From: Escherichia coli
GTDB lineage: Bacteria > Pseudomonadota > Gammaproteobacteria > Enterobacterales > Enterobacteriaceae
Assembly (NCBI RefSeq): GCF_003334385.1
Contig: NZ_QOWN01000018.1
DNA length: 64,000 nt
Strand: one strand, 5' to 3'
Shown here piece by piece: positions 18,839-31,441 of the stretch (the first letter of the stretch is position 1; each line of letters begins with the position of its first letter). The position numbers and the translations under genes are program-made. Below the pieces are notes generated by a model. It saw nothing but the letters and a program-made list of their open reading frames with translations. It was not told where the DNA came from and did not search any database.

Positions 18839-19885
18839 TCAGTTCGATACCTGGGGTATTCGACGACGACGTAGACTGTTCCATGAATAGACTGCGTTGA
18901 ATAACACTACGCCAGCGGTGACGAGAAATACCGCTCTGAAACCGTAGTTCGCTGAAATCGCTGCTCCCATCAATGGTCCGGTAACGTTGCCAATATCACG
19001 AAACGATTGGTTATAGCTGAAGATACGCCCGGCGATCTGGTTGCTCGAGTTGTAAACCAACAGTGTCTGTACGGCGGGGAGTAGTGCACCATCGGCGGCA
19101 CCGAGCAAAAAACGTAAAATCCCAAGTTGCAATGGCGTCTGAACGTAAGACATTGGGATCAACAGCAGTACAGAAAAGATCAGCGCTGTAATCAGGATCT
19201 TTTCGGGTCCGATTCGATCGCCAAGTTTGCCGAGTCGTGGTGCACTTAGCAGAGCCGCCACGCCTGGCACCGAGGCGATCATGCCACTGATAAAGGCGAC
19301 GTTACTGACGTTACCCGCCAGTTCGCGGACATACAGCGTCAGAATGGGGGCAATTGAGCCCGTCGCCACCTGGATGATTAACGTAGTGACAAACAGGCTG
19401 AGTACCAGTTTCGGGTTTTTAAGTGATGTCACCACTTCCCGCATGTGCAGCATCTCTTTTTTGCTGACCGGCTGGAATTTTTCTCTGATGCAAAACAGGG
19501 TGACGAAAAAGCAGAGTATGAGCACACTGGCGGTAATAAAGAATACCGGACGTAAGCCGTAGCTATCGGCGAGCAGGCCGCCAGCCATTGGGCCGAGCAA
19601 CGCACCACTAACGCCGCCTGTGGAGAGCGTACCCAGCGCCCAGCCGCTTTTATTACGCGGTACTTGTGTGGCGATAAGAGCATTAGCGTTGGGGACAAAT
19701 CCGCCAAGTAACCCAAGAAGCGCCCGCAGGATCAAAAACTGCCAGATATTTTGTGCCAGCCCCATCAACACCATCACGATGCCCATGCCGAGGGCAGAGC
19801 GTAATAGCATGAGTTTTCGGCCTTTACGGTCGGCGAGTCCACCCCAAAACGGTGAGGCGATGGCCGAAAATAAAAATGTAATGCT
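18839..19885 (-). pseudogene. mdtG: mdtG 3-prime portion (MFS efflux transporter) cut off from its start by the insertion
   Basis: The frame reads ...[34 protein letters not shown]... to stop at 18839. It continues the 62-codon N-terminal piece at 31260-31441. Upstream of 19885 the frame hits a stop inside foreign DNA. Confidence 0.93.
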
Positions 19886-19907
19886 GATATTTGTTCCCTA
19901 AATACAC
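19864..19907. other. attL-type junction: mdtG arm / shared CTGA (proposed CT core 19884-19885) / element arm GATATTTGTTCCCTAAATACAC
   Basis: The host reading frame is lost within 19881-19887. The same CTGA occurs at the other junction (31260-31263). Confidence 0.75.
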
Positions 19908-20048
19908 CATGAGAACATACCTGTTAATAACAGGACAATATCAGGTGAATGATTATGCAATTCAACGGTGTTTTTCCAAGTATCTAAGCAGTTTTACACA
20001 GATTCTATGCAGTATCGGTATAGTCTCTTTTTAGCATAACTTATTGAT

Positions 20049-20080
20049 ATCTATAAAGAATCTGTGAAGTCTCTTTTCAG
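20049..20080 (+). repeat. left copy of a roughly 32-bp direct repeat ATCTATAAAG-A-ATCTGTGAAG-TCTCTTTTCAG flanking the small recombinase gene
   Basis: Aligns with 21162-21191 (ATCTTTAAAG-T-ATCTGTAAAG-ACTTTTAAG), about 25 of 32 positions, same orientation. Degenerate extra copies lie at about 20022-20037, 21127-21140 and 21229-21254. Confidence 0.7.
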
Positions 20081-20287
20081 GGTAAACTGTATCGTGTTAG
20101 TCGTCCCTCTCTCGACTCCTAGAAAAGTGCTATATACAGGGCTATATAACGATATATAGATAGTTGGTCACATGGTGTAACTATCAAGAAACTTAACGAT
20201 TTCCTACGTGAAAGTTAGAAAGTGATGGTTATAGTTACCCTCCTAAAATCTTCATAGCTCCTTCATAACCAGTCTTAAAAGGACTTC

Positions 20288-20393
20288 CTTATGAGACACT
20301 TTCAACGTAACGGTAGAATGCACCTTCCAAGTGTCTCATAAGCTTGTTTTTGAATTATGAGACAGCTAAACTTATGAGACCAACTTTTGAGAC
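20288..20393 (+). promoter_or_regulatory. cluster of five TTATGAGAC-type boxes, including a perfect 14-bp inverted repeat, directly upstream of the small serine recombinase gene
   Basis: Boxes lie at 20289-20297, 20333-20341 (inverted), 20355-20363, 20372-20380 and 20385-20393 (TTTTGAGAC). CTTATGAGACACTT (20288-20301) is the exact reverse complement of 20329-20342. A possible weak promoter TTGAAT-17-TATGAG overlaps the boxes. Confidence 0.6.
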
Positions 20394-20408
20394 TTCTTAG
20401 GGGGATGT

Positions 20409-20957
20409 ATGGCGGTGATTGGTTATTGCAGGGTATCAACACAAGACCAGACTGTAGACAACCAGAAACTACAGATAGAGAAGGTTCACAAGGTCGATAA
20501 ATGGTTTATTGATGAGGCTGTCTCAGGAGCTACAAAGGCCACCAGCAGAGATGGTTTTAGAGACATGATGAACTATGTAAGGTGTGACGATACGTTAGTT
20601 GTGGTAGCTATTGACCGTTTAGGGCGTAATACCGTTGATGTGCTCTCTAACGTGGAGGCACTACAGACTAAAGGTGTGAGGGTTGTTTCTCTACGTGAAG
20701 GTTTCGACTTATTAACACCAATCGGTAGAGCAATGCTTACTATGATGGCTGGTTTAGCTGACCTTGAAAAAGACCTTATCAGTGAACGTAGAAAGGCTGG
20801 TATTGAACGTGCTAAAGCTGAAGGGGTTCACATGGGGAGACCTGTAAAAGCTTCTTCAGAGACTGTAAAGATGCTTATCTCACAAGGTAAAACGAGGTTG
20901 CAGATTCAGGAAGAGCTAGGAATCTCTAGAGCAACTTATTACAGACTTGCTAAATAA
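20409..20957 (+). CDS. small serine recombinase (resolvase/invertase family) with C-terminal HTH
   Basis: 182 aa. N-terminal IGYCRVSTQDQ catalytic-serine motif, DRLGRN, and C-terminal GRP...GISRATYYRL HTH. AGGGGGA RBS 5 nt upstream. Confidence 0.9.
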   Translation: MAVIGYCRVSTQDQTVDNQKLQIEKVHKVDKWFIDEAVSGATKATSRDGFRDMMNYVRCDDTLVVVAIDRLGRNTVDVLSNVEALQTKGVRVVSLREGFDLLTPIGRAMLTMMAGLADLEKDLISERRKAGIERAKAEGVHMGRPVKASSETVKMLISQGKTRLQIQEELGISRATYYRLAK

Positions 20958-21161
20958 GTTACTGAATAGTTACATGGATGTAGCTGATATTTGGCTTTTT
21001 TGCAAAGGGGGTCACATAGCTGGTGTGACGGGTACTTAGCAGGTATAGACCTGTGATAGATATTTTCGAAGATTCGGGGAAGATGAGATTCAAAGAGGGC
21101 TAGTCATTTTTTATAAAAATTTTCAGAATCTGAAAAGTTACTGTACAGAATATATACAGAC

Positions 21162-21191
21162 ATCTTTAAAGTATCTGTAAAGACTTTTAAG
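21162..21191 (+). repeat. right copy of the direct repeat flanking the small recombinase gene
   Basis: See 20049-20080. Confidence 0.7.
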
Positions 21192-21300
21192 ATAAAAGAT
21201 AGATATCCAGAAAGGATATCCGTTTAGAAAGACTGTTAAGTATCTCTTAAAAGAGAGTAAACCTTGTCAATAGTGATTGCAATAAAAATTTTTATTTCTT

Positions 21301-21963
21301 ATGTCAATTGAGCATATTTTAATCGGGAAGCATCATGGGGGTTCTGATTACTGGAGAACTCCATTTTTGTTATTTAAGAATCTAAACTGTGAATATATTT
21401 TCACGCTGGATGGTGCTGCAACTAAGCACGATACGTTATTACCCCGCTTTACGGATGATATTCACAATCAATCGTGGATTGGCGAAAGGGTGTTCTGTAA
21501 CCCGCCGTACAGCGATATTCCGTCGTTCCTCATAAAAGCGTCTGAGGCAGATTTAGCGGTATTCCTGATACCGTATAGAGCCAACACCAGCTACTGGCTT
21601 AGGCACATTTACAGCAATAACCACTGTCATGAAATCCGTATTCTTCATCGTGCAGTTAAATACCTTCCACCAGCAGGCCATAACGGGCTTACTATTCGTT
21701 CACCGTTTCCAAGTGCAGTCATTGTTTTTAAAAAAGAACCACGCAGGCATGAAATTACGCAGATGATTTGCTGTGCTGATACATTGCTACCGTTAACCAT
21801 CATTAACAGAGGAGGCTTAAGAGGAAGACCCACCATTTACCCACCTGAGACGCTCGACAGCTTCATAAAACTATACAGGCAAGGAAAACCCATTAAGTGC
21901 ATTGCAGATGCTCTCAGAATGCCTCTGAGCACGTCATACAGGATTGCGCAAAGGTTGAGCTAA
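21301..21963 (+). CDS. phage-type DNA N6-adenine methyltransferase (NPPY motif) fused to a resolvase-type C-terminal HTH
   Basis: 220 aa. SDYWRTPFLLF...LDGAA...VFCNPPYS is typical of the phage Dam-like family. The C-terminus GRPTIYPPETLDSFIKLYRQGKPIKCIADALRMPLSTSYRI resembles the DNA-binding tail of resolvases. No obvious SD, so the start is uncertain. Confidence 0.7.
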   Translation: MSIEHILIGKHHGGSDYWRTPFLLFKNLNCEYIFTLDGAATKHDTLLPRFTDDIHNQSWIGERVFCNPPYSDIPSFLIKASEADLAVFLIPYRANTSYWLRHIYSNNHCHEIRILHRAVKYLPPAGHNGLTIRSPFPSAVIVFKKEPRRHEITQMICCADTLLPLTIINRGGLRGRPTIYPPETLDSFIKLYRQGKPIKCIADALRMPLSTSYRIAQRLS

Positions 21964-22067
21964 AATTCTCATAAATATGGTCATTTACAAGACAGGTGAT
22001 TCAGATATTAAGAAGTATCCCTGTGAACAATAAATGACCAATCAGTAATTATTCTGTGAAATAATTG

Positions 22068-22096
22068 TTGCAATTTATAATCACATCTGTTATAGT
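22068..22096 (+). promoter_or_regulatory. sigma70-type promoter TTGCAA-17-TATAGT upstream of the replication gene leader
   Basis: Hexamers at 22068-22073 and 22091-22096 with a 17-nt spacer. Confidence 0.55.
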
Positions 22097-22274
22097 TTCT
22101 ATATGGGCTGATAAAAAAGTTCATGTCTTGAAGTGGTAACACTTGGGGAGGTGTCAGATGGTTGGCGTATAAAACCTCTCATTCATGGTATACCTCAGCG
22201 TTTTAATCATCGTACTGTTTCAGGCATGGACTTCTTTATCAGTCCATCAATCCCCCAGATATTTTAATCACACA

Positions 22275-22304
22275 GGCTAATCGGTTTTATCCGGTTGGCC
22301 TTTT
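22275..22304 (+). terminator. terminator-like hairpin (possible attenuator, or end of a roughly 200-nt leader RNA) 20 nt before the rep start
   Basis: GGCTAATCGG-TTTTAT-CCGGTTGGCC (10-bp stem with two G-U pairs) followed by TTTT. Confidence 0.5.
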
Positions 22305-22325
22305 CACATATGAGGTATTTTATGA

Positions 22326-23294
22326 ATGAAAAAAGAAACTAATGCTTTTATTATGGTAGATAAACGAGTTGCACAATTCCCTAAAACATTAAAGCCAATT
22401 GACCGCTTGGTATATTTCACTATGCTGGATGGTGCTGATTATTACGAATCTAAGTTCGGGAGATATGCACCAAGTATTGACTATTTGATGGTTATGTCTG
22501 GTGCTACACGTAATACAGTTATTGACTCTCTGAAAAGACTTGAGTCACACAGGCTTATTGAGAAGACCAATATCAAAGGGCAGCAAAGTATTTTTAAAGT
22601 ATTCACGTTAGATGAGCGTCCAGAAGTCTTATCAGAACCTACCCTTGATGAGCGTCGTAGAGTCAAATTATCAGGTCAACCAGAATCTGACACTAACCCA
22701 ACCAAAAATTGGTTACCTACCCAACCAGAATTTGGTTACCTACCTAACCAGAAATTGGTTACATGTAATACTGAATATAAAGACAAAAATATAAAAACTA
22801 AAGAAGAAAGACTAAAAGGGAACTTTGAAGAAGAATCTCTTAAGAAGGGAGCTTCGCTCTGTGATTCACATGAATGTGATATTAAAGAAGATGACTTTCT
22901 TTCTTTGGATGAATTAAATGATTTTCTCTCTATGAATGAATCTGACCTTGATAGTGAAGCTACTAAAGAGGTCGTTAAAAAGGAAGATAAAATCTCTGAT
23001 GTGATTGCTAGTAGTGACCATAAAAACACACAGTGCCCCGCCACTGATGATGAGATGGACCCCTTCGATGATGATGAAGAGGATGAAGAGTCAGAACGTG
23101 AAAAAGCCATTAAGAGGGTAGAGAAGAAAAAGAGATTCGAGCTTGCAAGACAAAAGAACAAAGTATCGGGTTTAGACCCATTCGATGACAGTGAAGATGA
23201 TTATTATCTTTCACCGAGAAAGAAACAAACCCAGGATGACAAGAAGCAAAAAATTAAACCGAAGATGTATTTTGCTGGTGGAGGTATGCGCTAA
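22326..23294 (+). CDS. putative replication initiator (N-terminal winged-helix-like domain, iteron-encoding linker, acidic/Lys-rich C-terminus)
   Basis: 322 aa with GAGG RBS. Its architecture parallels lambda O: the origin iterons lie inside the gene. Function is inferred, not recognised by homology. Confidence 0.55.
   Translation: MKKETNAFIMVDKRVAQFPKTLKPIDRLVYFTMLDGADYYESKFGRYAPSIDYLMVMSGATRNTVIDSLKRLESHRLIEKTNIKGQQSIFKVFTLDERPEVLSEPTLDERRRVKLSGQPESDTNPTKNWLPTQPEFGYLPNQKLVTCNTEYKDKNIKTKEERLKGNFEEESLKKGASLCDSHECDIKEDDFLSLDELNDFLSMNESDLDSEATKEVVKKEDKISDVIASSDHKNTQCPATDDEMDPFDDDEEDEESEREKAIKRVEKKKRFELARQKNKVSGLDPFDDSEDDYYLSPRKKQTQDDKKQKIKPKMYFAGGGMR
22678..22810. other. putative origin of replication: half-iteron plus three 23-bp-spaced palindromic iterons AACCA-N5-TGGTT, then an AT-rich tract
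   Basis: AACCAAAAATTGGTT at 22700-22714, AACCAGAATTTGGTT at 22723-22737, AACCAGAAATTGGTT at 22746-22760, and a half-site AACCAGAAT at 22678. The A/T-rich run 22761-22810 follows. Confidence 0.65.
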
Positions 23295-23584
23295 TGAGAG
23301 AATATAACGGTGAAAAACGATACAAAGATTATCTATTAAGGCGCTACAGCATTTCTCGTGAAGGTCATCTTCTGAAAGATACTCATGGGGAGGTTTACCG
23401 GATTCGACCGAAGAAGGAAGGAAAGAATTATTTCTTTTTTGATGGTGTGACAGATTTAAAGATTGACGCTTTGAGGTTTGCAGTGCTGTATCATTATGAT
23501 ATCTGGGATTCGGTCCACCAGCTACGATTAAAAGACGGTGACCCCGGTAATCTGAGGGCCACCAATATCATCACAAAACGTTAG
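23294..23584 (+). CDS. small protein of unknown function (weak NUMOD4/HNH_3-like pattern)
   Basis: 96 aa, ATGA-type overlap with the rep stop. YSISREGHLL...LKDGDPGNLRATNI faintly recalls homing-endonuclease-associated DNA-binding modules. Confidence 0.45.
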   Translation: MREYNGEKRYKDYLLRRYSISREGHLLKDTHGEVYRIRPKKEGKNYFFFDGVTDLKIDALRFAVLYHYDIWDSVHQLRLKDGDPGNLRATNIITKR

Positions 23585-23766
23585 TTTGTTTTACCATCAT
23601 CAATCGTAATTGTGATTTCATATTTGAAAAGCTTAATGCTGAAATTGAATCGTGTACTTTTGGCGATAATCATTTTTAAAAGCTGATACACCAGAAGCAC
23701 CAGAAACACAAAGCAACCTAAGCTTGCGAATCTGTGAGATTCAGCAATTGTTTCAAGAAAGCCCAT
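23581..23766 (-). CDS. 61-aa single-pass membrane protein (toxin-, holin- or exclusion-like candidate)
   Basis: It has its own promoter TTGTCA-17-TATTAT and SD AAGGGGA. Hydrophobic core LGCFVFLVLLVYQLLKMII. It is the only minus-strand gene in the element besides the integrase. Confidence 0.5.
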   Translation of the reverse strand: MGFLETIAESHRFASLGCFVFLVLLVYQLLKMIIAKSTRFNFSIKLFKYEITITIDDGKTN

Positions 23767-23816
23767 TAATTCCCCTTATTTATCAAAGGGAATGACCTGT
23801 ATCAGCCCCTATAACC

Positions 23817-23867
23817 ATAATATCATGTAAATGAGATGTTGACAATATGTTAAATAAATGTTAAGAT
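23817..23867. promoter_or_regulatory. back-to-back divergent sigma70 promoters with overlapping -35 hexamers
   Basis: Plus strand: TTGACA (23839-23844)-17-TAAGAT (23862-23867). Minus strand: TTGTCA (complement of 23840-23845)-17-TATTAT (complement of 23817-23822). Confidence 0.65.
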
Positions 23868-23903
23868 TGTAGTATGAGTAAGAGATTTAAGGAGATTTTT
23901 ACA

Positions 23904-24194
23904 ATGACTCACACAGTTACGCGCCTTTTGCCAGAGGCATTTGAACGACTGGCAGCAATCAAAGCCAAATACCCTGATATGAAGCACACGGCGCTTGTTG
24001 GAGAGCTTTTAAAAGAGTCGGTAGCCCTGACCCCTTTCGATAACGTTAAGGGCGTTGCAGAGGGTTCTAAGGCCATCAGAATCACAACAGGCCAACTGGA
24101 ACTACTCAAAGCGCAGTCCGCAGTAGCAGGTTGCTCAATGATTCAGGTGTTAAGCACTAAGGTTCATCAACTGGCGGATAAATTGGAGGTTTAA
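23904..24194 (+). CDS. putative tandem ribbon-helix-helix DNA-binding protein
   Basis: AAGGAG RBS 9 nt before ATG 23904 (the ORF track start 23874 is less likely). Two beta-alpha-alpha-like segments: HTVTRLLPEAFERLAAIKAKY... and AIRITTGQLELLKAQSAVAG.... Confidence 0.5.
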   Translation: MTHTVTRLLPEAFERLAAIKAKYPDMKHTALVGELLKESVALTPFDNVKGVAEGSKAIRITTGQLELLKAQSAVAGCSMIQVLSTKVHQLADKLEV

Positions 24195-24580
24195 TGTATG
24201 ACTTTTATAAACATCGTGACCATTTGGTAAGATTTGACGGTAGAGTCTGGAAAGACATAACAGAAACCAATAAACCCAAGTTTACCCACCAGCAATTAGC
24301 CTCAAGATTTGATATCTGGACTGAAGCACAAAAAGATAATGGTGATTTCGAGTTTATCAGGGGTTTTGATTATGCTTACGAAGATGACCTTAAAGACGCC
24401 ATTAAATTAATTGAAAATTTTAATGGAAATAATTCTGGTGACAAACACAAAGCCAATGGTAATCGGTATGACAGGGAGTTAATTCTTGATGCCATTTCCA
24501 GAGGTCAATCACAAAGTTATATTTCTGAGAAATACGGCTTATCACGTAGTCAATACTACAAGATTAAAGCGTCTGTGTAA
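24194..24580 (+). CDS. hypothetical protein with resolvase-type C-terminal HTH
   Basis: 128 aa, TAATG overlap with the previous gene. C-terminus ISRGQSQSYISEKYGLSRSQYYKI. Confidence 0.55.
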   Translation: MYDFYKHRDHLVRFDGRVWKDITETNKPKFTHQQLASRFDIWTEAQKDNGDFEFIRGFDYAYEDDLKDAIKLIENFNGNNSGDKHKANGNRYDRELILDAISRGQSQSYISEKYGLSRSQYYKIKASV

Positions 24581-24717
24581 GCCTGTGAGAATGAGTGAGA
24601 CTCAAAGATGAGCTACCCTATTACTAAGGTGTCTCACTCCCTCTGTAACCCGCATGGTTACTGGCCTCAGAATGGCTATTTTGGCAGATTTAAGATGTGT
24701 TTTAGAGGAATTTAAAA

Positions 24718-25041
24718 ATGAACAACTTCCCATTACAAATTTTCGTTGATAACGACACCGCTCTGATGATTCAGGCTTTCACTGATTCCGGTGTATCAAT
24801 TGACTTTGACAGGCTGTTAGAGTTGATGGCTGATAATGCAGAAAACATCTCTGACTTTATTCAGTCGGTGGAGTTTAACGAGCCTCGAATGATGCTACCA
24901 ATTAAAGACAGCAACATGAAAAGATTGGTTATCGAGCAAACGAACAAATACAGCGTTAGCCCTGAAAGATATCTCAAGGCAGCTATAGCAATTTTGTGCG
25001 CTGACAATATTTTGGTGACGGATTCGAAGGTGGTGCATTAA
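24718..25041 (+). CDS. hypothetical protein
   Basis: 107 aa, AGAGGA RBS. No recognisable motif. Confidence 0.5.
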   Translation: MNNFPLQIFVDNDTALMIQAFTDSGVSIDFDRLLELMADNAENISDFIQSVEFNEPRMMLPIKDSNMKRLVIEQTNKYSVSPERYLKAAIAILCADNILVTDSKVVH

Positions 25042-25118
25042 TGGGCTTAATAATTGCTTGGACAGCTTTGGGTTTATTTGTTGGTTGCTGGGTAGGTAAC
25101 ACAGTAAATAAGAATTGA
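25041..25118 (+). CDS. possible 25-aa hydrophobic peptide (MGLIIAWTALGLFVGCWVGNTVNKN), translationally coupled
   Basis: TAATG overlap with the preceding stop. Below the ORF-track size cut-off and found by reading. Confidence 0.3.
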   Translation: MGLIIAWTALGLFVGCWVGNTVNKN

Positions 25119-25143
25119 TGTTGCCAATCTGTTAAAAAGCTGT

Positions 25144-25172
25144 TGACAAATAACCTTAAGCATGACATAATT
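25144..25172 (+). promoter_or_regulatory. sigma70-type promoter TTGACA-17-CATAAT heading the late/structural operon leader
   Basis: Hexamers at 25144-25149 and 25167-25172. Confidence 0.6.
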
Positions 25173-25535
25173 TTAATTATGGGAGAGTAATTCTCTCTTA
25201 TATTTCTTTCAATAATCCGATGGATGGATGGATATTCTGAGTTGGTGAGGTATGTTCTATACCGAACATTCTGAAAGGTGCAATGCTTTTCGCTACATGA
25301 CCTCTTATATAACCTGAGAGGTCATCTCGAAAAGTACTCTTGTTCATTCGTTATTGAATCCTTTAGATGTTTTAATTTCTTCACCTTATGAATAGCCCTT
25401 TATAAGAAATTATCTAGGGCTATTCAGTTTTTAAAAAGCATACTTGGCAAACCGCCTTTTAAGTCTCTTCTAAGTTCGTAGGCTGTCAGGTGTGCTTTTT
25501 AAAAACTGAATATACTTAGAAGAGGAAATGAAATA
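25173..25535 (+). promoter_or_regulatory. roughly 360-nt non-coding, hairpin-dense leader (candidate cis-regulatory RNA or packaging/recognition site)
   Basis: No ORF with an RBS. Hairpins at 25184-25198, 25253-25270, 25298-25326 (9 bp) and 25391-25426 (10 bp). A 20-bp perfect inverted repeat (25422-25441 and 25494-25513) overlaps the last hairpin. Confidence 0.55.
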
Positions 25536-26246
25536 ATGGCAAATGACATTTATATTAGTGGAAGAAAAATTGATAGCTTCGGTGACTGGTCGCCACAGAC
25601 TGAACATCCAGCTATCGTTATTCAGCGTAAAGAACACGATGCGAGAATTGAGCTTGAGCAAGAGCTAAAGATGTCACCAAAGCAAATTACCTTTGTGTCT
25701 CCTGAGCCTCAAGAGATGCCTGATGTATGCAAGAGTGAAGCATTGCTTGAGCTTGAAAAGAAATATTTCCCAGCTTTAAAAGCACAGCGTCTTAGATTAG
25801 ATGACGCTTACAGCAAAGTTACCCTGATGCAATCAGCTATTGAACCGTCAGAATTTGAGATTCAGGATGAATTGTCACAGAAACCATTTGTTTATTACCA
25901 ATATGCAGACAATGATGGTTTTGGTACTTTTCCTGAGAATATCCCAGACGCGATTAGTAGTCTTCCTGATGGATATCGAATTGTGAAGATGGTTAAAGCT
26001 TCAAGGGGTGCTGGTCAATTTATTTATATGACCAATAAGAGCGATGAAGAACTCGCTGAACTTGCTAGACAGAACATCTTGGCATCACGTAACAAGCAGC
26101 TTGATAGTGCTAAGTTGTATCTCTCAAGAGAGCTTCAGGCTATGAAAGAGCTTGTTAGTGAATATGAGTCGCAGAAGAAGATTGCTATGCAAGCTGATAT
26201 TGAGCAGTTAGTGAAGATTTCTCAGAAGTATAGTAAAGCACTTTAA
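25536..26246 (+). CDS. hypothetical protein with coiled-coil C-terminus
   Basis: 236 aa, GAGGAA RBS. No recognisable family. Confidence 0.55.
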   Translation: MANDIYISGRKIDSFGDWSPQTEHPAIVIQRKEHDARIELEQELKMSPKQITFVSPEPQEMPDVCKSEALLELEKKYFPALKAQRLRLDDAYSKVTLMQSAIEPSEFEIQDELSQKPFVYYQYADNDGFGTFPENIPDAISSLPDGYRIVKMVKASRGAGQFIYMTNKSDEELAELARQNILASRNKQLDSAKLYLSRELQAMKELVSEYESQKKIAMQADIEQLVKISQKYSKAL

Positions 26247-26270
26247 TTATGAATTAAGAAGAGGTGATTA

Positions 26271-26480
26271 ATGTTTGAAGAACGTTTAGAGACTATTCGG
26301 TCTGTTTGTGAAAACTTAAAGTTACAAACCAAGCCAGCCTTAAGAATTAAAACCAAACATCAAATTATCACCTCACACAAACCAAAAACACGCAAGATTC
26401 CAAAGTGGTGTATTGACCGTATTCCTTCTGATGCTCAAATCATAGGTGAAACGGAATTACATTATCTTGTCCGACATTAA
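26271..26480 (+). CDS. hypothetical basic protein
   Basis: 69 aa, GAGGTG RBS. Confidence 0.45.
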   Translation: MFEERLETIRSVCENLKLQTKPALRIKTKHQIITSHKPKTRKIPKWCIDRIPSDAQIIGETELHYLVRH

Positions 26481-26503
26481 AAATTGGTTGGGTAAAATCA
26501 ACG

Positions 26504-26544
26504 GGAGAGATTATCGAGTGACATCGGTAGTTTCTCCTTTTTTT
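26504..26544 (+). terminator. imperfect hairpin plus T-run (possible terminator or pause) before the tape-measure gene
   Basis: GGAGAGA...TTTCTCC outer stem followed by T7. Confidence 0.4.
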
Positions 26545-26577
26545 GTATATGAACACTTAAGAGGTGAAAAAATATGA

Positions 26578-28749
26578 ATGGCACAGTTTAAAGTTGATGA
26601 TTTTCTGATTGAGCTAGGTTTTAACTCTCAGAGGGTTTTAAAAGGTCTGGAAAAAGCCGAGAAACAAACGATGCAGGTAGCATCACGAATTGAGAAGCGA
26701 TTGAATAAAGCTTTTAAAGTTAACCCTACGCCTTTAAATGATTCTCTCAAGGTCATGGAAAGAAATGTCGATAAAACTGTTTCCAAGATTGAGCAGCGTC
26801 TTAAAAACACTAAAGCGTTTAAGATTAAAACGGAAATTGAGGATACTTTAAAGCCACTTAAACAACCGAGACAGCCACGAATTAGCGGCAACAGAGCAAT
26901 CACAGCAGCACATAGTGTGAATATGTCTAAGCTTGGTGATATTAATCCGCTGATGGCTAAAATGTTTAAAGCACAGTATTACAGCTTAAGCGGTAAGGCT
27001 GGTAATATTGGAAGTGAAAAGTTTAACGCTGAACTTGCAAAATTAAATCAATCTCTTCGTGAAACGTTGAATAAACTCAGGTCACAGACAAAGACCGCCA
27101 GCATCAGCAAAGTAAATGATTCCTTTAATAATCTTGCAAGCAATGCAATTAAGTTATCTGGTGCATTTTACTCTGTGATGGGTGCTCTTAACGCTTACAA
27201 GGCCATTATGAATGCAGGTCTTAAACGAGATTCCGCACAGAGAGCCGCTAAGTTTGTACTTGGTGATAAAGCATCTGAAGCTGAAACATTTATCAGGGGA
27301 CTGGCTGACAAGACAGGTCTTAATATCTCTGAAGGACTATCAAGCTACGCTAAGTTTGCAGCAGGTGCTCAGGGTTCTATGTCACAGGAACAGACACAGG
27401 AGCTATTTGGTAATGCAACGGCTATGAGCCGTTTAATGGGGCTTTCTAACGATGAACTAAACGGCATTTTGAAAGCTTTTGAGCAGATGGCTTCTAAGGG
27501 CAAGATTCAGGCTGAAGAATTACGTGGGCAGTTAGGTGACCGTATGGCTGGTGCATTTAAGCTATTCGCTGAAGCATTGGGTATGACTGCTACAGAGCTT
27601 GATGCAGCCATGAAAAACGGGAAGGTACTTTCCGCTGATACTCTCCCTAAAGTCGCTAAACAGATGGGCTTGATGATTGATAAAGCGGGTGGCTGGGCTG
27701 AAGTCGCTAAGAGCACCCAGACAGCTTTAGGTAAGTTAGCAAACAACTGGGATGATACGATGGTTAAAATCTTCTCAGGTTCACAGGATGAGTTAAACGG
27801 CTTCTTATCCAGCCTGGGTAGCCTGCTTAGTGAAATGGGGATGAGTTCTTCTATCGCTGGTGATGCTATCGGTGGACTTATCGACATGCTTAAAGCTGGT
27901 GTAGATGATATTCGCGTATTCAATAACACCATTGAAGGCTGGATTTTACAGGTTAAAAAGTTCTATTACAGCCTTGATGACACTAAACGAAAACTACTTG
28001 ATGAAGTCGGTGATGGTTTTATCAATTTTGTCAAAGGTCTTGCTATAGCGTTATCTGCAAAGACGCTATTCAGTGCCACTACAGGGGTGATGAACCTGAC
28101 AAGAGCAATCACAACGTTAGGTACAAGAGCTAATCAGGTGGCTGGTCAGGTAACTACTGGTAAAGGTGGTGGAAAACTGAAAGGTGTAGCTGGTGGTGTA
28201 GGTAGTGCTCTTGCAATTGGTTATGCTGATGACGGTTATGAAACAGCGTTAGCATTAGCTTCAATGATTCCACAAATCAGAGGTGTCACCCTTGGTTTAT
28301 ATGCATTGAAGAAAGCACTGGATTTTATGAATCAGGAAGTAGTCAAAAACGCTAATATGCATCCATCTGGGGTAGGTGTGGGTAGTGACTTTAATCCTGT
28401 GTATTCTGGTGACCCTAATAAACCGAATATGATTAACGAAGGATGGAGTAAAATTTTTAATTCAATGGGTGAATTGTTTAACAATGCCACAATGAATATT
28501 GCAAGATTCAATCATCCAGAATTAAACAACATTAAGCAAGATTCAGCATTAACGAGTGCAGATATTCAGAGTCTGAGGGATGAAATTAGTGCTTTGAGTA
28601 AACGTATTCAGGAGCCTGTGAAAGTTTCACTTGGTGGTGAAGTTGCCATTAAACCAGATGAAACCAGCTTTATGACCTTTAGCAGTAATATCTACGACCA
28701 ATATGCAGAAGCTACGCTATTAAGTTCATCATTCCCAGAAGATGATTGA
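26578..28749 (+). CDS. phage tail tape-measure protein
   Basis: 723 aa with a coiled-coil N-terminus. The central tape-measure signature is GKIQAEELRGQLGDRMAGAFKLFAEALGMTATELDAAMKNGKVLSADTLPKVAKQMG. Gly-rich hydrophobic segments lie near the C-terminus. Confidence 0.8.
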   Translation: MAQFKVDDFLIELGFNSQRVLKGLEKAEKQTMQVASRIEKRLNKAFKVNPTPLNDSLKVMERNVDKTVSKIEQRLKNTKAFKIKTEIEDTLKPLKQPRQPRISGNRAITAAHSVNMSKLGDINPLMAKMFKAQYYSLSGKAGNIGSEKFNAELAKLNQSLRETLNKLRSQTKTASISKVNDSFNNLASNAIKLSGAFYSVMGALNAYKAIMNAGLKRDSAQRAAKFVLGDKASEAETFIRGLADKTGLNISEGLSSYAKFAAGAQGSMSQEQTQELFGNATAMSRLMGLSNDELNGILKAFEQMASKGKIQAEELRGQLGDRMAGAFKLFAEALGMTATELDAAMKNGKVLSADTLPKVAKQMGLMIDKAGGWAEVAKSTQTALGKLANNWDDTMVKIFSGSQDELNGFLSSLGSLLSEMGMSSSIAGDAIGGLIDMLKAGVDDIRVFNNTIEGWILQVKKFYYSLDDTKRKLLDEVGDGFINFVKGLAIALSAKTLFSATTGVMNLTRAITTLGTRANQVAGQVTTGKGGGKLKGVAGGVGSALAIGYADDGYETALALASMIPQIRGVTLGLYALKKALDFMNQEVVKNANMHPSGVGVGSDFNPVYSGDPNKPNMINEGWSKIFNSMGELFNNATMNIARFNHPELNNIKQDSALTSADIQSLRDEISALSKRIQEPVKVSLGGEVAIKPDETSFMTFSSNIYDQYAEATLLSSSFPEDD

Positions 28750-28905
28750 TTTAACGGTGTTCTACGTGAATAAAGCAAAGTTAATACCCGCACTAAAAAT
28801 TATTTTTTACGTAGCACACGCTTAACAGAGAAAATACTTATATATCAAAGGCTTGGTTAAAAATGATTAAAATACACTAAGCCTTTGAAATCAAAGGAGA
28901 ATTTA

Positions 28906-29694
28906 ATGATTTACTCTAATCAACTTCGTTACAGTGGCAAAGATGGTGTTTACTTCCATCTACAAGGCCAACCAGATAATTTCTTGTCACTATCAGCAAC
29001 AGAGAACATGGAATTTGACAGCCCTATGATGGTGACCACTCAAAATATGCAATCAGGGCAGACTGTAACAGATAATGTAATGCGTTCACCCAGAACTATT
29101 TCAATCAGTGGTGTGGTTGTAGTTGGTGAATCCGGTAGTATCCTCATCTCAAGAGATAATAAGCTGGTGGAAAACTTCATCGACACTCTTGAAAGCTGGC
29201 GTGACCAGAAGCAAATTATTTCGGTCATCTGTAAAGACGGAATTAAAATTGATGATTCTATTATTACGAGTTTTAAAGCCTCTAAAGATGTTGGTATTTC
29301 AAATGGTCTAAGAGTCCAGCTAACTTTTCAGGAAATTAACTTTAAAGCAATTGTAGGGCAAACTGATGTTTCAGCAGCTACTGGCAAAGCTGCCACCACG
29401 AATGACGGTGGTGTGACCAGTAAGAAGAATGCAGGTAACGTGACCACTGAACGCAATAACGCGCCTATGCTATCGTGCAAAGAGTTAATGAATATTAGCG
29501 ATGTATCCGGTTACGTTCCGGCTATCAGAAATGATATTCTCGATGCTCAGATTAAGTGCAATAAAGCTTGGAAGCTGGACTATTCAGACTTAACAGAAGC
29601 TGAAAAAACCAACGTCACCAATGCTAATAGTAACGCTGGTCGAGTAGCTTCAAAGCTTAAAAAGTACTCAGTGAATCCTAATAAGAGATACTAA
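28906..29694 (+). CDS. putative distal-tail (Dit-like) / baseplate-hub protein
   Basis: AAGGAG RBS before ATG 28906 (the track start 28885 is TTG). The N-terminal pattern [36 protein letters not shown] resembles Dit-like tail proteins, and it sits directly after the tape-measure gene. Confidence 0.45.
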
Positions 29695-31220
29695 ATCTCT
29701 ACTACATCAACATCTATTAAACCCCTCTCAGTGACTTCAGAAAGCGACTGTATAGCCTCTGTAACGTTGTCTGAGGGGTTTTCTGTTATAGGTAGGTCAA
29801 TTACCTTGCCGTTGTGAAAAGTCACTTTACAGCGACGTTTAGCGGCATCTATAACTATTTCTTTGAGTACGCCCTTGATAAGTAGCTGTGTCTCTATCAT
29901 CCCTTCCTTTGTTGTCCTGTCAATATCTTTGAGGCTTCCAGTTGTGATGGCCTTTATCCGCTGTGTTTCCTCTTCGATATCATGATTGAGTTTTGATAGC
30001 GCATTCTTCATATCACGTAATTTCTCTGTGATAATTGTCATGTCATCGAGTTCAATAGCGAGTTCTGCCATTTTTGAGATTTTACGCTGCAAATCTTCAC
30101 GCTGTAATTTAAGGCTATCAATAGTGTCAGTATTTTCAGTTTCAAAACGGTCGCATAATGCGAGCATGTAGAGAATAGTTGCATCCGTTTGCTTACGACT
30201 GATAGCCTTTGCACTACACCTGTTAGCTGAACGATTAGGGCATCTGTACATCCCAAAACGTTTTAAGGCATATCCACCAAGAACAATAGTAGCCCCACAC
30301 TCAGAACATTTGATGATACCCCTGAACAAGTTGACTGATAGCGGATTACTTGATACAGAAGCCCTACCATATTGCCCTGTGTTCAGTTGCTGTACTCGAT
30401 AGAATAGTGACTCACTGATTATTGCGGGGTAGTAACCCTGAACTTCTTCACGTCCAGCAGGTGTGAAACATCCAATCACAGCACGATTTCTGAGTAGTTT
30501 CTTTACAGCAGTATCAGACCACCCCTTTTGTTTGGGTGTGTATTGATTCAATGACAAGTGGCCTTCATCGTTTAAAGTTCTGGTGATAGCCCAAAAGCTT
30601 AAACCCTGTAATCTCAGGTCAAATGCTCGTTTAACAACTTCCACTTTATCGGGGATGATAGTGAATGTTCGACGGTCATCATTCAGCCTTAACCATGCAG
30701 GACAACGCCTAGATACCTTGATACCTTCGGAGATGAGTTCTTTTTTACGGTTCCATGCAGCTTGGACACGCTCAGACTTCCTCAGACTTTCCTCATGCGC
30801 CCGCTGCATTATCAGAATGCTTTTAATCAGGGATAACGGGTCTTTTAAACTTTCTCGTGTGTAATGTTCACCATCGGACAGGGTGACTACATCTACACCA
30901 GCCCTTAAGATACGGCGTAATAGCTCAGAAGCAATATCAATATCCTGACGTGACAGACGGTCTAAACTCTCGATTAGTAGCGTATCACCAGCTTTAACAA
31001 GCCCTTTCTCGATAGCGGTTAGAAAGTCACCTAGACCACCTTTCAGGTGCTTACCACTAAAAGCACTTTTCCCCAAATCTTTAAAGCTCAAGGATGAATC
31101 CAAGTAAAACTCAGGGTTCTTATCAAGCCAGTCAGTAACCAGCTTAGATTGTCTGCGTACAGAGTCCCCTTTTAGTTGTCGTTCACTTGAAAATCTGATG
31201 TAGCTGATTGCCCGTCTCAT
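29691..31220 (-). CDS. large serine recombinase (integrase)
   Basis: About 509 aa from ATG 31220 (the track begins at TTG 31226). [11 protein letters not shown] catalytic motif, DRLSRQ, a recombinase domain, a zinc-ribbon CSECG...[11 protein letters not shown] and a long coiled-coil. It lies 40 bp from the junction. Confidence 0.92.
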
Positions 31221-31239
31221 ATTCAATACCTAAAATGAT

Positions 31240-31281
31240 GTGTTTAGGAACCCATTATACTGAAGACAATACCGGACCACA
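31240..31281. other. attR-type junction: element arm GTGTTTAGGAACCCATTATA / shared CTGA (proposed CT core 31260-31261) / mdtG arm
   Basis: The mdtG frame (…[10 protein letters not shown]) leaves host sequence here and terminates after 3 foreign codons (MGS stop at 31244). Confidence 0.75.
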
Positions 31282-31441
31282 TATTCAGGGCGGAGTGACC
31301 GGTAACGCCAAGCTGCTCAACGTAGAGGGGTAAGAAGGGCATTACCAGACTGAAGGCGGCACCGGTAAGAAAACAGCCTAGCCAGGCGACGATCAGGTTT
31401 CGTTTCCAGTTTATAGGGGTGTCATTTTCACAGGGTGACAT
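31260..31441 (-). pseudogene. mdtG: mdtG 5-prime portion (first ~62 codons)
   Basis: [62 protein letters not shown] matches the MdtG N-terminus. Confidence 0.93.

Follow-up and report, generated by a model that had tools for sequence, protein, structure and literature searches.

The 11.4-kb element carried within mdtG in the window (the whole stretch of Escherichia coli DNA analysed here, 64,000 nucleotides) most probably entered the gene through its own large serine integrase, by conservative exchange at a CT dinucleotide; a probability of roughly 85% was assigned to this reading from comparison of the sequences. Large serine integrases synapse attP and attB, cut at the central dinucleotide leaving 2-nt overhangs, rotate and religate, and a non-palindromic dinucleotide fixes the polarity of the recombination. 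In the scheme proposed here, the integrase (29691–31220, minus strand) would be the protein that recombines an attP of roughly 50 bp and imperfect dyad symmetry, ...ATGATGTGTTTAGGAACCCATTATA-CT-GATATTTGTTCCCTAAATACACCAT..., with an attB in mdtG, ...AAAATGTAATG-CT-GAAGACAATACC.... A 2-bp staggered exchange is predicted at the non-palindromic CT, whose coding-strand counterpart is the AG of the Ser61 codon (AGC). By its insertion the element splits mdtG after codon 60, with a TAA in the P arm ending the N-terminal fragment, and precise excision, of which the element may still be capable today, would rejoin mdtG and release a circle of 11,376 bp. Substrates and products are consistent with the serine-integrase scheme in every sequence feature that could be examined.

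Insertion in mdtG and the two junctions

The integrated element occupies 19886–31259 (plus strand, 11,374 bp; the circle measures 11,376 bp when one CT is counted), and its flanks rejoin to an intact mdtG. By comparison with the intact gene, the 3′ part of mdtG (codon 61 onward) lies at 18839–19885 and the 5′ part (codons 1–60) at 31262–31441, both on the minus strand. Past the junction, the reading frame of the N-terminal fragment continues in element DNA, giving ...VFSIMGS*, and closes at the TAA at 31244–31246 (minus strand) in the P arm. When the flanks were joined through a single CTGA, the product was 100% identical to mdtG of K-12 MG1655 and of many other strains, with the restored junction reading ...TGTAATGCTGAAGACAA...; the uninterrupted host site proposed in the initial annotation, ...GTCTTCAGCATTACATTT..., is thus correct. 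The native coding (minus) strand reads GGT ATT GTC TTC AGC ATT ACA TTT (G-I-V-F-S-I-T-F), in which TTC AGC ATT encodes F60-S61-I62 and the AG that opens the Ser61 codon is the counterpart of CT on the other strand. Since this alignment with uninterrupted mdtG gives AGC as the native codon, a CT-centred exchange is allowed, and the fallback that had been offered, a Ser codon AGT with the crossover in AT, is void.

The mdtG site was uninterrupted in 5402/5426 complete E. coli genomes and interrupted in about 24, while relatives of the element, at whatever site, were present in 570/5426. The MdtG efflux pump is thus inactivated by insertion in a minority of strains, and precise excision would restore the gene. 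Besides the integrase, the element encodes a small serine recombinase, a Dam-type methyltransferase, a helix-turn-helix protein with a weak match to replication initiators (phrog_270/678, E=5e-8) and several ORFs with no family match.

The attL spans 19859–19911 (host B arm 19859–19883, CTGA 19884–19887, element P′ arm 19886–19911) and the attR spans 31235–31286 (element P arm 31235–31259, CTGA 31260–31263, followed by the host B′ arm). The left junction reads ...AAAATGTAATG-CTGA-TATTTGTTCCCTAAATACACC... and the right junction ...GTGTTTAGGAACCCATTATA-CTGA-AGACAATACCGG..., so that CTGA stands at both, as had been noted before this analysis. The bases flanking CTGA are unlike at the two junctions, and the identity between attL and attR is therefore exactly 4 bp. 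The insertion is conservative and precise, and the longer direct repeat that serves as a mark of tyrosine integrases is lacking.

These junctions recur among carriers. Identical attL and attR were shared by the mdtG-type loci L001 and L002, a Shigella flexneri locus (L003) and an Escherichia sp. contig (L004). The exact integrase protein was found on 15 contigs, and the six insertion places shown were all in mdtG with identical attL and attR. About 22 complete E. coli genomes also carried this attR unchanged, each P-side match stopping at CTGA. Similarity of the left end to elements of the yecE and wrbA types, described below, begins only at 19912–19918, so the att-specific left end is about 26–32 bp, which is the length of the P′ half-site.

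A hairpin, CCTGTTATTAACAGG, is kept at the left end in all three att types (hairpin and promoter-like region at window 19920–19934 and 19952–19979). A promoter-like site near the left end on the minus strand, TTGGAA-16-CATAAT, identified by its consensus matches, is directed at the junction; once the element is circular, this site would point towards the integrase gene, with attP between the two. When the element is integrated, the integrase gene is co-oriented with mdtG, directly past the TAA of the truncated ORF, and the mdtG promoter may drive its transcription.

The rebuilt attP and the position of the exchange

The element right end (arm GTGTTTAGGAACCCATTATA, 31240–31259) was joined around CT to the element left end (arm GATATTTGTTCCCTAAATAC, 19886–19905), giving a predicted attP that reads ...CCCATTATACTGATATTTG... 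across the junction. Both 20-nt arms had been quoted in the initial annotation and were found at these coordinates, and its statement that they match as inverted repeats at 14 of 20 positions around CT and much worse around TG was reproduced on recomputation (14/20 vs 7/20). With 25-nt arms the matches were 18/25 at CT and 8/25 at TG; at GA they were 8/20 and 8/25, and other offsets gave 3–9. The chance dyad score across the window had a mean of 5.0 of 20 (sd 2.0), scores of at least 14/20 were reached at 9/63,958 window positions and of at least 18/25 at 1/63,948, and of 200,000 shuffles of the 54-mer attP, 14 scored at least as high as the real site when centred on CT, TG or GA. An outer motif, TTTAG (31243–31247), lies at −17 to −13 in the P arm and holds the TAA that ends the truncated mdtG ORF; its mirror, CTAAA (19898–19902), lies at +13 to +17 in the P′ arm. 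The attB had no clear dyad symmetry (5/20 at CT), and no clear signal was seen in it of the inward-shifted outer (zinc-ribbon) motif expected from the A118 model. Identity between attP and attB is limited to the short centre of 4 bp (CTGA).

Related elements in other genes were used for comparison. An integrase 68–70% identical to that of the window was found on the same backbone in about 276 genomes, and in the five loci examined (L010, L011, L014, L015 and H65/H66-type hits) this type was inserted in yecE. Native yecE reads GGCTGTCT-AA-AATCACCC and the intact site ...GGCTGTCT-AAAATCACCC.... Two variants of the insertion were distinguished. In variant A (L010, L014) the attL is ...TGTCT-AAAATCA-TCAAGG and the attR ...TCTAATA-AAAATCA-CCCG, with an overlap of 7 bp; in variant B (L011, L015) the attL is ...TGTCT-AA-GATTAGC and the attR ...TCTGATG-AA-AATCACC, with an overlap of exactly AA, 2 bp. 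At least 12 complete genomes of varied origin had the variant-B attL with 100% identity, and 47 had it at a coverage of at least 80%, so that neither faulty sequencing nor mutation at one locus accounts for it. When rebuilt, the yecE attP was centred exactly on AA (18/25 matches for variant B, 17/25 for variant A, 2–9 at other centres), and its arrangement TTTA(A/G)-12 nt-AA-12 nt-CTAAA has the same geometry as TTTAG-12-CT-12-CTAAA of the mdtG type.

A third module, with a 547-aa integrase of 36% identity, was found at the 5′ end of wrbA (L016, L017). Its overlap is 7 bp (GTGCTTT), within which the best dyad centre is GT (13/25). The central dinucleotide of this type is probably GT, judging from the arms: if the centre is GT, GTGTT(A/T)AG stands at −20 to −13 on both, in the register of the mdtG type. 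The wrbA-type attR (L016 16033, L017 15592) supplies a replacement start for wrbA, ATGAGTGTTAAGGCAAGAATACTAGTGCTTTATTATTCC... to MSVKARILVLYYS for MAKVLVLYYS, so that wrbA stays annotated as intact, unlike the split mdtG and yecE. Both yecE and wrbA are already known as prophage insertion genes (PMC3603311), and yecE of L010 holds the element together with a lambdoid prophage that has a tyrosine integrase. The sister elements in yecE and wrbA have backbones about 90% identical to that of the window, the same gene order and the integrase at the right end, and differ in the integrase (68–70% for yecE, 36% for wrbA), the inner arms, the dinucleotide and the target.

The mdtG junction sequences alone are equally compatible with exchange at CT, TG or GA, since attP and attB share each of these dinucleotides, none of which is palindromic, and every one would yield the same attL and attR. 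The sister modules were compared for the position of the centre. Where the junctions pin the crossover to 2 bp, which is one case (yecE variant B), its position is the dyad centre, and in the mdtG, yecE and wrbA modules alike the dyad centre defined by the outer motifs falls within the attL/attR overlap; from these two observations the mdtG crossover was placed at CT. Position by position, the mdtG half-sites matched the yecE half-sites at 13.1 of 26 with the centre at CT, and at 5.0, 5.8, 10.2 and 8.5 of 26 with neighbouring centres. Exchange by the same integrase at TG (19885–19886) or GA (19886–19887) within CTGA would draw some support from the value of 10.2, which belongs to GA, but is considered unlikely: the dyad drops from 18/25 at CT to 8/25 at either alternative, the yecE family has an unambiguous 2-bp overlap at its dyad centre, and both mdtG arms register with TTTAG/CTAAA at 12 nt for CT alone. 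From symmetry and from homology to the system of the 68–70%-identical integrase, we infer that the mdtG crossover is at CT and not at TG or GA, in support of the exchange point first suggested. Its attL copy would be 19884–19885, homologous to the 2-bp AA overlap of yecE variant B, and its attR copy 31260–31261, the first two bases of mdtG codon 61; both coincide with the dyad centre.

The integrase and other candidate enzymes

The large serine recombinase (29691–31220, minus strand) has 509 aa from its ATG, and the start codon is 40 bp from the crossover, inside the right junction. The ORF is complete and was matched by Pfam to Resolvase (PF00239, E=3e-16, residues 6–162), Recombinase (PF07508, E=1e-17) and Zn_ribbon_recom (PF13408, E=3e-7). 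With these three domains and a nucleophile motif, the gene adjoining the junction is the large serine recombinase that it had been taken for. In the mdtG type and the yecE type alike the motif reads YIRFSSERQ; its wrbA-type counterpart is YIRWSTKEQ. Residues 246–461 align with the C-terminal domain of the A118 integrase (4KIS/5UDO), which was the sole PDB match (E=7e-4). The NCBIfam models XisF and Ccr scored far under their cut-offs, and the relation to named families is only distant. Among GTDB species representatives, close matches to the integrase were in Escherichia/Shigella, and the distant ones (30–39%) were uninformative for att. A 548-bp contig labelled Mycobacterium sp. (L005, NZ_LMVQ01000531.1) encodes residues 2–163 of the integrase at 83% identity; it probably reached that assembly as an enterobacterial contaminant.

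The mdtG and yecE integrases are 76–98% identical in the catalytic domain and 35–68% identical at residues of about 200–480, the DNA-binding region. The backbone is about 90% identical between types, whereas each target (mdtG, yecE, wrbA) goes with an integrase allele and inner att arms of its own. This pattern supports the view that the integrase would set the target gene.

A second serine recombinase gene (20409–20957; Resolvase and HTH_7) lies close to the left end, within a variable cassette at 20218–20997. In its place, L001, L016 and L017 have an unrelated cassette, also encoding a recombinase, in the opposite orientation, and L010 lacks the cassette. The strand difference among loci had raised the candidate of an invertible segment holding the small recombinase, which was rejected on alignment, where the cassette proved to be replaced or absent; window 20218–20997 is accordingly read as a cargo hotspot.

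The nearness of this gene to the left end, together with the promoter-like site and hairpin near the left junction, could be taken to mean that another enzyme inserted the element, either the small serine recombinase or an integrase since lost, and that the dyad is a regulatory palindrome or a coincidence. Such an origin is very improbable. Elements with the cassette replaced or absent are integrated alike, so the small recombinase is unneeded to explain the junctions, and the target gene follows the allele of the large recombinase and not the cassette. No match to a tyrosine recombinase domain (PF00589) was found in the ORFs scanned, and serine integrases typically leave such a 4-bp overlap with no direct repeat beyond it. 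Integration by the large serine integrase is thus kept as the preferred reading.

In the attachment systems of known serine integrases (phiC31, Bxb1, TP901-1, and A118 with structure 4KIS) the same features are seen: a resolvase catalytic domain, a recombinase domain and a zinc ribbon with coiled coil; an attP about 50 bp long whose arms form an imperfect dyad, and an attB that is unlike it save for a few central bases; a non-palindromic 2-bp crossover, predicted in the present case, with no longer target duplication; and an attP directly upstream of the integrase gene. Unlike those systems, the present one has only a distant sequence relation to them, and it is carried by an 11-kb element, not a full prophage, in which no capsid or terminase gene was recognised.

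The literature was searched for mdtG with a serine recombinase, for the attP sequence and for Felixounavirus satellites, and nothing was found; the supplements of Durrant et al. 2022, in the parts covered, gave no match. Within the searchable literature, this enzyme with its pair of sites seems not to have been described, whereas the attachment system itself is typical of serine integrases. The result would be a comparatively supported attP/attB pair for an apparently uncharacterised E. coli serine integrase, to which the yecE and wrbA relatives add further pairs. The three enzyme and site sets are probably orthogonal, sharing an outer motif and differing in inner arms and core dinucleotides, and such modules would be useful for studying the re-targeting of serine integrases and possibly for genome engineering. 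The mechanism is ordinary for the enzyme class and should not surprise specialists; a carrier with Felix O1-like tail genes is the more unusual lead.

Possible mobility of the element and its proposed relation to Felix O1-like phages

An excised form was sought in sequence collections. A metagenome contig of 11,473 bp (L019, ERZ1090866 NODE-760) includes ...GTGTATTTAAACGTGTCTAATAAAAATCATCAAGGTCTAAATACAC..., the attP predicted for variant A in yecE, a short way upstream of the integrase gene. Host DNA is absent on either side, the two ends are adjacent on the element map, and one of them is Nextera adapter sequence. This contig is read as a circular permutation of a yecE-type element, that is, an excised circle or a head-to-tail junction, and as a sign that members of the family excise. 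For the mdtG type, searches of viral contigs, of metagenome contigs and of complete E. coli genomes yielded no intact attP, whether in an excised circle or in a tandem copy; the one short contig that encodes the exact integrase has attR too.

It is possible, though we hold it the lesser chance, that the sites are genuine serine-integrase sites and yet the element is now a fixed relic whose attP is only historical. This would agree with the lack of any excised mdtG-type form in those three collections, with the truncation of the integrase or its interruption by an IS in other carriers (L002, L003, L015), and with the fact that no recombination directionality factor, which such enzymes need for excision, was recognised in the element. 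Against it, the integrase ORF of the window is complete, both att sites are unmutated, the identical integrase protein occurs on 15 contigs, and a sister element (L019) appears to have been caught as a circle.

Two tail genes lie next to the integrase. The tape-measure gene (26578–28749, plus strand; Pfam TMP_3) and the Dit-like tail gene (28885–29694, plus strand; Pfam Dit_like), the latter adjoining the integrase gene, encode proteins 32% and 69% identical, respectively, to the tape-measure protein of Felixounavirus Andreotti and to the product of the next gene, which are adjacent and in the same order. Over about 450–500 bp, the Dit-like gene has about 80–86% nucleotide identity to roughly 200 phage records. 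The other element ORFs had no match in Felixounavirus Andreotti, and a 236-aa ORF had none in any phage record. The likeness of the tail-gene pair suggests recent exchange with, or parasitism of, Felixounavirus, the virulent Felix O1-like myoviruses.

No match to a capsid or terminase gene was found in the element, and six of its ORFs had no family match of any kind. At 11.4 kb, with an integrase and the weak match to a replication initiator, the element is within the size of phage satellites (about 7–20 kb). A tentative proposal from these gene comparisons, more doubtful than the account of its integration, is that it may belong to an undescribed E. coli family of about 11 kb with at least three interchangeable integrase/attP modules (mdtG, yecE and wrbA), acting as a satellite or as a tail-interfering defence island that exploits Felix O1-like phages, and leaving the chromosome as a circle like that of L019. 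A search of the literature found no paper describing such an element family.

The PLEs are phage satellites of Vibrio cholerae that integrate in superintegron repeats. As these are generally described, the present element is like them in being a small chromosomal island with a large serine recombinase, its own gene weakly resembling a replication initiator and no recognised capsid genes, and in having putative ties to a virulent myovirus, here Felixounavirus. It is unlike them in its targets, which lie inside housekeeping genes and not in superintegron repeats, and the likeness drawn here is one of description. The published enzyme for this comparison is the large serine recombinase of the PLE of V. 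cholerae (PMC9638900).
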